Source: a virus | Taxonomy: Duplodnaviria; Heunggongvirae; Uroviricota; Caudoviricetes | Virus record (IMG/VR): IMGVR_UViG_3300029288_003766 | Coordinates: 153,787 to 214,968 of that record | Length of the DNA: 61,182 nucleotides | Reading direction: 5' to 3' (one strand) | Shown: one piece after another, positions 1 through 1,752 of the stretch | How the letters are laid out: every line of letters begins with the position of its first letter | How positions within the stretch are numbered: position 1 is the stretch's first letter | Program-made: the position numbers and the translations under genes | The notes under the pieces: generated by a model | Seen by the model: the letters and a program-made list of their open reading frames with translations, nothing else | The model's database searches: none | Told to the model about the DNA's origin: nothing

Positions 1-436
1 GAAAAAGTTCCAGTTCTTAGATTTTGTTGAAAAAGCTAACGTGTCCATCATCAACCAGACGTTACGTGCAATTTGTAACTTCTTGGTAGTTGGTAGCAAC
101 ACCGCACGTTTAATTCGCCAGTTGGATCCTCATTTCAAACCAGCTGCTGGATTAGATAGCTTAGTTCCAACAGGTCCTTATGAACTTGGTACTTTGGACG
201 GAAGATTAGTTATCCACGATCCATTACTTGGTGTCAACCAGATTCTGTTTGGTTTCAAGGGTGATAACTATCTTTTCGCAGGTCTGTTATTTGCTCCTTA
301 TATTCCTTTGTTTGCAACCCCAACCTTAGTTACAGCTGATTTAAAGGCACAGAAAGGTTTCTTGAGTTCTGCAGGGTATAAAATTTGCAATCCGGGAATG
401 TTTTGTAATGGAACTATTAATTATGGTTCATTATAA
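1..436 (+). CDS. Major capsid protein (T4 gp23-like), 3' part; unspliced form ends at 436 (...SSAGYKICNPGMFCNGTINYGSL)
   Basis: Frame is open from position 2 (KKFQFLDFVEKANVSIINQTLRAICNFLVVG...GFKGDNYLFAGLLFAPYIPL). This resembles the gp23 C-terminal motifs RGxxNF(I/L)(I/V) and GYKGxxxxxAGxxYAPYV. Neck and tail genes lie downstream. The 5' end is outside the window. Confidence 0.88.
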   Translation, partial: KKFQFLDFVEKANVSIINQTLRAICNFLVVGSNTARLIRQLDPHFKPAAGLDSLVPTGPYELGTLDGRLVIHDPLLGVNQILFGFKGDNYLFAGLLFAPYIPLFATPTLVTADLKAQKGFLSSAGYKICNPGMFCNGTINYGSL

Positions 437-684
437 TAACATTCTACTATTTGCTCTGCTAAAATCTGCTCAATTCGGTGGAACTCCTTTAAAAAGGACA
501 ATACCGAACCAGACTAATGGAAACATTAGAAATGGTGTAACGACTACGTTGAATCAGGTGACTGATTTGGCTACGGCAGACCTCAGAAATGAGTGAAGGT
601 ATAGTCTTAACTCTATAGTAATATAGAGAGGTAAGCAGAAATGACTTACCCGCCTTAGAAATAAGGTTAACAAGTAAAAGATTG
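378..684 (+). mobile_element. Group I self-splicing intron (IA-like, no endonuclease ORF) in the major capsid gene
   Basis: P1: exon GCAGGGU(371-377) pairs with IGS GCUCUGC(453-459), with a U.G wobble at the splice site. P3 UCUGC465-469/GCAGA576-580; P4 UUCGGU474-479/ACCGAA503-508; P5 485-498; P6a CUAAUG-GAAA-CAUUAG 514-529; P7 GACUA542-546/UAGUC602-606; P7.1 552-567; P8 582-593; P9 611-628 plus two further hairpins; terminal G684. Joining T377 to A685 restores the frame (GGG TAT AAA GTT GTA AAC). Confidence 0.9.
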
Positions 685-743
685 ATAAAGTTGTAAACCC
701 AGGTATGTTCTGTCAAGGAACAATGAACTACGGTTCTCTTTAA
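685..743 (+). CDS. Exon 2 of major capsid gene (Y)KVVNPGMFCQGTMNYGSL*
   Basis: Matches the unspliced C-terminus at 380-436 in 14/18 aa, with the stop at the equivalent position. In frame after the predicted splicing. Confidence 0.85.
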
Positions 744-780
744 CTTATAACAATAAGTTTTAGCTAACTGACAATTTGGG

Positions 781-833
781 CTGGACAGAGGAGAGCACGG
801 TTACTATAAACGTAACCTTCTCCTCTGAGCCAG
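781..833 (+). terminator. Long stem-loop downstream of capsid gene (terminator, processing or stabilising hairpin)
   Basis: CAGAGGAGA786-794/TCTCCTCTG819-827, GGTTAC799-804/GTAACC812-817, CTGG/CCAG closing. No strong U-tract. Confidence 0.5.
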
Positions 834-867: not shown

Positions 868-1752
868 ATGAGCTTAGAAGTTGACATAACGGAAATTAAA
901 ACATTGATTGAGCAAACCGACAAGTTTGTGTGCAATCAGTGTGGGCAGGAGTTTATGACAAAAACCGGCTATACTGAGCATATTACAAAGAAGCACTCTG
1001 GTAAGACATATGATTTATCAAACCACAAGCTAGGTTGTCTTTGTTCATTTTGTAAAGATAAACACGGTGAGAATAATCCATTTTTTGGTAGGAAACATTC
1101 AGAAGATACTATAAAGAAACAATCTATTGCTAGGAAGGATAAGAGCTATGAAGAAATTTATGGGGGAGAAGATGGCCAAGTAATGAGAGATGTAAGAGGA
1201 CATCAAATGACTCGTCAACAGCAAGATCCTGCTTGGAAAGAAAAAACAAGTAATAGTTTATCTAAGGCGTTAACTGGTAAACCAAAGTCAGCTGCACACA
1301 AGCAGAAGCTTAGTGATGTATGGGATATTGGTCATACAGCTGAAGTAATCAATAAGATGGGCAAGGCATCAAGATCTAAATATATGAAAGGATATTTTAC
1401 GTCGGTAATGAACCAGCGTGATATTTATTTTCAGTCTTCATATGAGCTTTATACTTATATATGTTTGGAGCACGATGAACAAGTACAGAGTTATGAGAGA
1501 TGCTCCTTTAAAGTTTTTTACTTGTTTGATGGTAAGATGAAGAGGCATGTTCCAGATATTGAAATTCATTATAAAGATGGTTCTATTAAGGTTCTTGAAA
1601 TCAAACCAGCTAAATTTTTGACTAACCCTGAAATTACGGCAAAAAGATTAGCGGGTGAAAAATATTGTGAAGAACACGGGATATCCTATGAAATGCATAC
1701 AGAAGAGGAAATCCAACGTATATTAGATAAGAGGCATTTAAATGACGATTAA
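868..1752 (+). CDS. Free-standing endonuclease: C2H2 zinc finger + NUMOD3 + TnsA-N/gp4-like PD-(D/E)XK domain
   Basis: CNQC...HITKKH; NPFFGRKHSEDT (NUMOD3); FQSSYE...HVPDIEIHYKDGSIKVLEIKP. Confidence 0.75.
   Translation: MSLEVDITEIKTLIEQTDKFVCNQCGQEFMTKTGYTEHITKKHSGKTYDLSNHKLGCLCSFCKDKHGENNPFFGRKHSEDTIKKQSIARKDKSYEEIYGGEDGQVMRDVRGHQMTRQQQDPAWKEKTSNSLSKALTGKPKSAAHKQKLSDVWDIGHTAEVINKMGKASRSKYMKGYFTSVMNQRDIYFQSSYELYTYICLEHDEQVQSYERCSFKVFYLFDGKMKRHVPDIEIHYKDGSIKVLEIKPAKFLTNPEITAKRLAGEKYCEEHGISYEMHTEEEIQRILDKRHLNDD

Follow-up and report, generated by a model that had tools for sequence, protein, structure and literature searches.

A group I intron near the end of a phage major capsid gene carries a spare in-frame copy of the exon that follows it

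Results

The capsid locus and its surroundings

The window, by which we mean the whole stretch of 61,182 nucleotides that was analysed, is the last 61 kb of a virus record of 214,968 bp. It begins within a major capsid gene of the gp23 type (PF07068, E 2e-13; phrog_138), which has its start 1,036 nt before the window (at G000:152750) and of which the 3' part of exon 1 occupies positions 1..377 on the plus strand. Read straight through without splicing, the gene is an intact ORF of 490 aa with its stop codon at 434-436. The HMM match of the protein to the solved gp23 ends at profile position 442 of 482. No close cultured relative was found, the best phage record being 27% identical, and matches of cultured phages to the intron described below covered no more than 35% of the query. 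The sequencing runs that match the stretch are all of DNA and are labelled as landfill and groundwater metagenomes.

Two features follow the capsid gene on the plus strand. A long hairpin at 779..830 (fold energy of -29.4 kcal/mol) has a loop motif that is also found 3' of the stop codon in six intronless relatives and occurs eight times in the genome. It is possibly a late promoter or a protein-binding site; a scan for promoters and terminators gave no signal above chance. Further downstream, at 868..1752, lies a free-standing endonuclease ORF with zinc finger-like, NUMOD3 and TnsA-like nuclease domains (PF07460, PF08722, phrog_15427 and atlas matches), a possible homing partner of the intron as judged by its domains and position.

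Elsewhere in the genome, outside the window, G000:C1:5547-18024 has a cluster of 32 tRNA genes together with a tmRNA gene of the phage (14460-14851), which points to a bacterial host. A 43% relative of the capsid protein (L435:2501-3982) is encoded on a 179 kb contig in a bin of Candidatus Borrarchaeum, an Asgard archaeon; this contig may be a virus of Candidatus Borrarchaeum or a misbinned phage.

A group I intron 19 codons from the end of the gene

By sequence tests, the element at 378..684 (plus strand) is a complete group I intron of 307 nt, positioned 19 codons from the end of the capsid gene. It matched RF00028 over 406-628 with 63.8 bits (E 2e-15; family cut-off of 50). The fast-filter Rfam scan of the whole window failed to detect it, and no Rfam family besides the intron was matched in positions 1-2000. 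In covariance-model and core-pattern scans it was the sole group I intron found in the genome, and there is no endonuclease ORF within its 307 nt.

In the fold, P1 is formed by the end of exon 1 (371..377) and the internal guide sequence (453..459, both on the plus strand), the latter located 16 nt past the stop codon of the spare copy described below. All seven positions pair, and the U377-G453 pair marks U377 as the predicted 5' splice site. The ribozyme core (465..666, plus strand) consists of P3 (465-469/576-580), P4 (475-480/502-507), P5, P6, P6a, P7 (542-546/602-606), P7.1, P7.2, P8, P9, P9.1 and P9.2, and all 61 pairs of these twelve assigned helices are standard in the window. When the same pairs were examined in eight related introns, 91% of the cells paired and both sides of the pair had changed in 38 of the 61. 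The resulting covariation of 0.56 is far above that of shuffled and slid controls (at most 0.21 for the slid ones), for a core structure that was taken from the window and is hence biased in the window's favour. The full group I core, the guide sequence and the splice sites U377 and G684 that a sequence-only reading of this DNA had proposed are thus well founded. We take the intron to belong to subgroup IA, the criterion being two extra helices, P7.1 and P7.2, located between P7 and P3, both of which are present (547-575 and 552-567, respectively).

The predicted 3' splice site follows G684 (684..684, plus strand), which is aligned with the terminal G of seven related introns and restores the reading frame. 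Joining of U377 to A685, the junction that this reading had expected, would restore the frame inside a Tyr codon, and intronless relatives are colinear across the junction. Exon 2 (685..743, plus strand) encodes a family-like capsid C-terminus. The candidate P10 duplex between the guide sequence and exon 2 is weak (-3.5 kcal/mol).

The intron opens with a spare copy of exon 2

The first 59 nt of the intron extend the capsid frame up to its stop codon, and this segment (378..436, plus strand), located in the P1 loop, is a spare in-frame copy of exon 2 with 18 sense codons and a TAA at 434-436. Compared with exon 2, five codons are identical, nine differ synonymously and four non-synonymously, with the stop kept (pN/pS of 0.19, binomial P 6e-4); the nine and four changes counted in the sequence-only reading were reproduced exactly. 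As translated, the unspliced and the predicted spliced messages each code for a capsid protein of full length. Exon 2 is 76-78% identical to the ends of intronless relatives with the same tail, whereas the copy is 61-63% identical to them. The copy contains an extra Cys that occurs in none of the 115 family proteins.

The P1 loop spans 379-451 and is 73 nt long, and the earlier description of a loop whose reading frame continues the capsid gene to position 436 holds. Most of the loop is a 22-bp hairpin at 395..445 on the plus strand (z-score of the MFE fold of -4.87, central pairing probability of 0.96), in which the spare copy and the linker past its stop are folded back on each other, bringing together the end of the exon and the guide sequence. 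The window hairpin depends in part on this post-stop linker.

Given the metagenomic origin of the record, and a divergence between the two tails that is about that between two related phages, one might suspect an assembly chimera of two such phages. This explanation, which the sequence-only reading had itself raised, is effectively refuted. A contig from run X2, which belongs to a different study, covers 193-837 with no differences, and the arrangement is therefore not an assembly artefact. In addition, pairing of the guide sequence spans the copy, and the same layout exists in seven other phages. A contig from run X1, possibly the source run, covers 58-1800. The layout conceals the intron from annotation, as the gene is called as an intact ORF; databases consequently carry the spare tail (P0002, P0008 and P0009) and lack the intron.

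The layout recurs in related and unrelated capsid genes

A comparison of relatives with and without the intron, suggested in the sequence-only reading, revealed the same layout in six related phages (L041, L018, L021, L005, L049 and L059), at five sites including that of the window. With the window, this amounts to 7 of about 76 distinct 3' ends of the capsid clade, a number made up of 42 intronless ends, 26 more without a copy (counted by hand), L014, which has introns and no copy, and the seven with copies. Most related capsid genes have no intron at their 3' end. On the capsid tree, the seven copy-bearing loci require seven changes, at least five of which are forced by well-supported branches; the placement of L049 was disregarded, its row having been badly extracted (very long branch, odd composition).

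The copy-bearing introns of the capsid clade differ in structure. In L041 (and in L064-L066), the intron is at the window's site, and exon 2 of L041 is broken by two further introns and is still in frame. The core most similar to that of the window (73%) belongs to L018, where the predicted splice site is 7 nt further downstream and the copy has the extra Cys that is absent from the other six copies. The shared Cys and the shift suggest that the splice site moved inside the spare copy (L018:2360-2700). The introns of L021 and L005 are at two other sites, and the L005 core, with a score of 56.8 bits, is without P7.1 and P7.2 by inspection. In L049 and L059 the copy is 44 codons long and the ribozyme contains an endonuclease-like ORF; these two introns were unscored by Rfam and were recognised by their core motifs, guide sequence and terminal G. 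Their NUMOD3 ORF continues in frame through the ribozyme core into exon 2 (L049:2005-3138 and L059:2565-3578), and this reading frame is a predicted fusion of an endonuclease with a capsid tail.

A motif scan of viral contigs found the same layout in an unrelated capsid family (L113/L193; 72.4 bits). Here the copy and the exon differ at 13 synonymous codons, with one codon changed and two identical, and the L113 copy is without a Pro that its compared relatives retain. The L113 intron, like those of L049 and L059, has an endonuclease ORF inside it. Every copy ends in the same final residues as its own exon 2, whereas the intronless relatives have 28 different 5-residue tails in 42 ends. The distance from the spare stop to the guide sequence is about 25 nt or less throughout.

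The layout is rare overall. The screen for it in other genes gave L113/L193 as the one new case among 126 distinct cores (123 loci, with flanks for 80). For a second intron type, there was no case among 124 cores (75 with full flanks), and the top score came from two similar tandem introns. Another phage (L384) was seen to have two near-identical group I introns in tandem in one gene. The relatives of L113 yielded nothing beyond four copies of the same element, and 34 further capsid loci yielded no new case except L424 and L425, which have the same element as L059.

L014 serves as a control, as it has an intron of the same type at the L049 site with no copy. Introns without a copy have a stop within a few codons, with the exception of one mid-gene intron. 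No copy is present in at least four introns located up to about 50 codons from the gene end, two in L014 and two in the L041/L064 gene; hence a copy is not required. A fifth near-terminal intron, the last in the L041/L064-L066 gene, begins with four hydrophobic residues that mimic the last exon, which itself encodes five. Group I introns are numerous in this capsid gene (L041:560-1500 and L064-L066), with seven or more Rfam matches in L065, and its shortest exons have 17-18 nt. For the mid-gene intron at L065:1699-2000, the assigned 5' U and terminal G gave no obvious in-frame junction.

Selection on the two tails

Pooled over seven loci, the pN/pS of copy versus exon was 0.17, with L041 omitted on account of its split exon 2. 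Within one genome, such a low ratio is no proof of present selection since the two tails could derive from two diverged phages, and a comparison between genomes is needed. Between the spare copies of L049 and L059 there are 22 synonymous and 3 non-synonymous codon differences (P 3e-11); the corresponding numbers for their exon 2s are 27 and 6. Both copies have a Pro-to-Ser change found in none of 116 family proteins, which makes their common origin likely, and as the differences between the copies are mostly synonymous, selection on the copy has continued after its origin. The window and L018 copies differ at six synonymous and two non-synonymous codons. The copies of the window and L041, which share a site, differ at one synonymous and seven non-synonymous of 13 codons, and this is not a purifying pattern. 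The earlier suggestion that both tails are under protein-level selection is borne out for the copies and exon 2s of L049 and L059; the within-genome dN/dS is insufficient alone. Free decay of the copy in relatives, which the same reading had considered damaging to its proposal, is likewise not seen between L049 and L059.

Exon 2 scored above the copy on the profile of 115 family proteins at all five loci that were scored. The residues at which copy and exon differ vary by locus, with only 1 of 44 in L059, 1 of 16 in L113, and other positions elsewhere. By codon usage, exon 2 does not stand out as the tail that is mainly translated (39 versus 40 in the pooled data, 2 versus 7 in the window), and codon bias was therefore dropped as a proof that exon 2 is the main product.

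We also considered that the copy might be kept for the structure of the RNA, as a P1 extension or a P10 mimic, or might have been recoded against the endonuclease or against recombinational deletion, with its protein product unneeded. The extended P1 hairpin that the copy forms in the window and in L021 would fit such a role, as would the L113 copy, which matches its exon at only 2 of 15 synonymous codons. Against it, conservation is at the amino-acid level and third positions are free. Neither variant of recoding is supported. The share of identical codons (54 of 135, or 0.40) equals the intronless background of 0.39-0.43 and shows no excess that would be expected from active recoding against self-cleavage or deletion. 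Recoding for hairpin formation was rejected because at seven of eight loci the copies alone are no stabler than 42 or 47 natural gene ends. This explanation appears very improbable to us.

A swap of codon patterns between the L049 and L059 copies was examined and found too weak (20/40 versus 19/41 and 11/38). There is no more than a hint of gene conversion between copy and exon: five of six codons are identical at the three residues where L049 and L059 differ in both tails.

Discussion

Ribosomes, P1 folding and a fail-safe tail

As far as the sequences go, the architecture is real, recurring and under selection. According to two reviews (PMC3073962 and PMC3984707), an in-frame stop directly after the 5' junction is present in most group I introns, and ribosomes can arrive there before the intron has folded. 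In phage introns this stop presumably exists because translation is coupled to transcription. In our folding model, the U377-G453 pairing probability was 0.87 with the core kept out of competition, and it fell to 0.07 when 422-451 was blocked, the block being the footprint of a ribosome that terminates at the spare stop. The proposal of the sequence-only reading that ribosomes entering the P1 loop would compete with P1 folding is thus plausible within this model.

When the core was free to compete, a fold predicted to switch splicing off, in which the end of the exon pairs with the 5' strand of P3, was formed with a probability of 0.6-0.7, against 0.23-0.35 for P1, in a model that is unable to form the P3/P7 pseudoknot. 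In this fold 371-375 pairs with 465-469 and copy bases 387-390 pair with the guide at 451-454; it is not evident in L041. The guide sequence and the P3 strand have a 6-nt repeat in common.

Taken at face value, the latter result speaks for an escaped intron, in which the spare tail is the main product while the ribozyme and exon 2 persist as a unit that is either young or spread by neighbouring endonucleases. The endonuclease ORFs beside or inside several copy-bearing introns and the pooled codon usage, which shows no preference for exon 2, point in the same direction. However, the fold is favoured by a model without the pseudoknot, in which taking the core out of competition raises P1 to 0.87. 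Furthermore, exon 2 is under selection in L049 and L059 and is the more family-like tail at five of five loci, saturation at synonymous sites between the two tails shows that the units are not young, and none of the eight copy-bearing elements has a decayed ribozyme or a broken exon 2 (L049 and L059 being judged by core motifs only). We regard an escaped intron as unlikely.

The alternative fold also bears on a regulated switch, by which splicing would select between two functionally different capsid C-termini, one with the extra Cys for instance, to give mixed or condition-specific shells. Both tails are conserved and four residues differ between them, the Cys is common to the window and L018 copies, and the region of the Cys codon (387-390) is the part of the copy that pairs with the guide in the predicted fold of the window. 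However, the guide-pairing bases are missing from the L041 copy at the same site, the differences between copy and exon are inconsistent across loci, neither the other six copies nor the 115 family proteins have the Cys, the copy fits the family less well at all five loci, and the Rfam search of 1-2000 matched only the intron family. The two-isoform switch, which the sequence-only reading had offered as one of two options, consequently has little in its favour, and we find it quite unlikely.

The other option of that reading, an intron that insures itself against failed splicing, fares better, given the layout at five sites and in an unrelated capsid and the protein-level selection on related spare copies. 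We think it probable, although far from certain, that the spare copy is a fail-safe, second-best tail for ribosomes that pass the splice site ahead of intron folding. In a message translated as heavily as that of the capsid, much would be read before splicing, and the stop codon of an ordinary intron would then often produce a capsid subunit without its last conserved residues, which would be wasted or harmful. The copy would make this obligatory stop productive by yielding a full-length, probably second-best capsid protein, while splicing is predicted to join the family-like exon 2. If the copy were fully sufficient, the ribozyme should decay. The fail-safe model thus needs exon 2 to be the better tail, for which the profile scores are the support, and splicing is likely kept for that reason.

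The copy likely arose when the end of an allele without the intron was joined illegitimately, in a single event, to the P1 loop of an allele with it, probably in the course of endonuclease-driven repair in a co-infected cell. The guide sequence would fit the new junction at once.

A more elaborate possibility is that the intron acts as a sensor of translation load. Ribosome traffic would unfold P1 and set the spliced fraction, thereby producing two capsid forms in a controlled ratio, and the buffered splice site would let the intron slide. Such sliding to new sites is suggested by the 7 nt that separate the splice sites of the related window and L018 introns, but as a whole we hold this idea to be quite unlikely.

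Significance and comparison with known systems

Group I introns are thought to persist because their splicing is obligatory and precise. What we describe is a recurring design in the gene of the main virion structural protein, in which splicing would be optional and is apparently kept all the same. The design lends itself to a natural test of a long-standing question, namely how much message is translated unspliced under coupled transcription and translation, and at what cost, because the two products differ by peptides that can be counted by mass spectrometry. In the full-text literature covered, mostly openly available papers and among them PMC11835236, no description of the spare-copy layout was found.

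The window intron resembles the phage IA introns of T4 td, nrdB and nrdD and those of Bastillevirinae and Jug in its U-G splice site in P1, P3-P9 core and terminal G, as well as in the extra helices between P7 and P3, the insertion in an essential gene and the in-frame stop in the 5' end of the intron (PMC3073962, PMC11878797 and PMC12880540). Unlike in these introns, the stop in the window is preceded by a complete copy of the coding sequence that remains, a feature that the consulted parts of these three sources do not describe.

The intron without an ORF and the endonuclease gene 124 nt past its host gene are reminiscent of a collaborative homing pair, a concept for which we refer to PMC2988022 and PMC10448857. 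A similar endonuclease ORF occupies the same place in L018, which has the intron. However, similar genes also follow the intronless capsid genes of L002 and L044 and there is none at that place in L041, and the putative pair is known here by gene order and domains.

The allosteric c-di-GMP intron and the IStrons of C. difficile are also group I introns with alternative RNA outcomes or reduced harm to the host gene, as related in the consulted sections of PMC3984707. The window intron differs in having neither an aptamer nor an IS transposase: no IS605-type transposase gene was found in its 3' part, and 630-684 has no room for an ORF. What it offers as the alternative is a second coding tail.

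A parallel in arrangement comes from the mORFs of fungal mitochondria (Allomyces macrogynus atp6; Glomus atp6, atp9, cox2 and nad3), where, according to PMC3630166, a mobile element is found between synonymously diverged copies of a C-terminus, the first of which is in frame. The atp6 copies are 63.5% identical in DNA and 91% in protein. In that account, however, the insert is an endonuclease ORF with no splicing described, and the native end is cut off, those of atp6 and cox2 not being in the mRNA. In the window, by contrast, a ribozyme lies between the two copies and is predicted to rejoin the downstream end, and exon 2 is under selection in relatives. The capsid introns connect self-splicing introns with the fungal mitochondrial endonuclease elements that replace a C-terminus.
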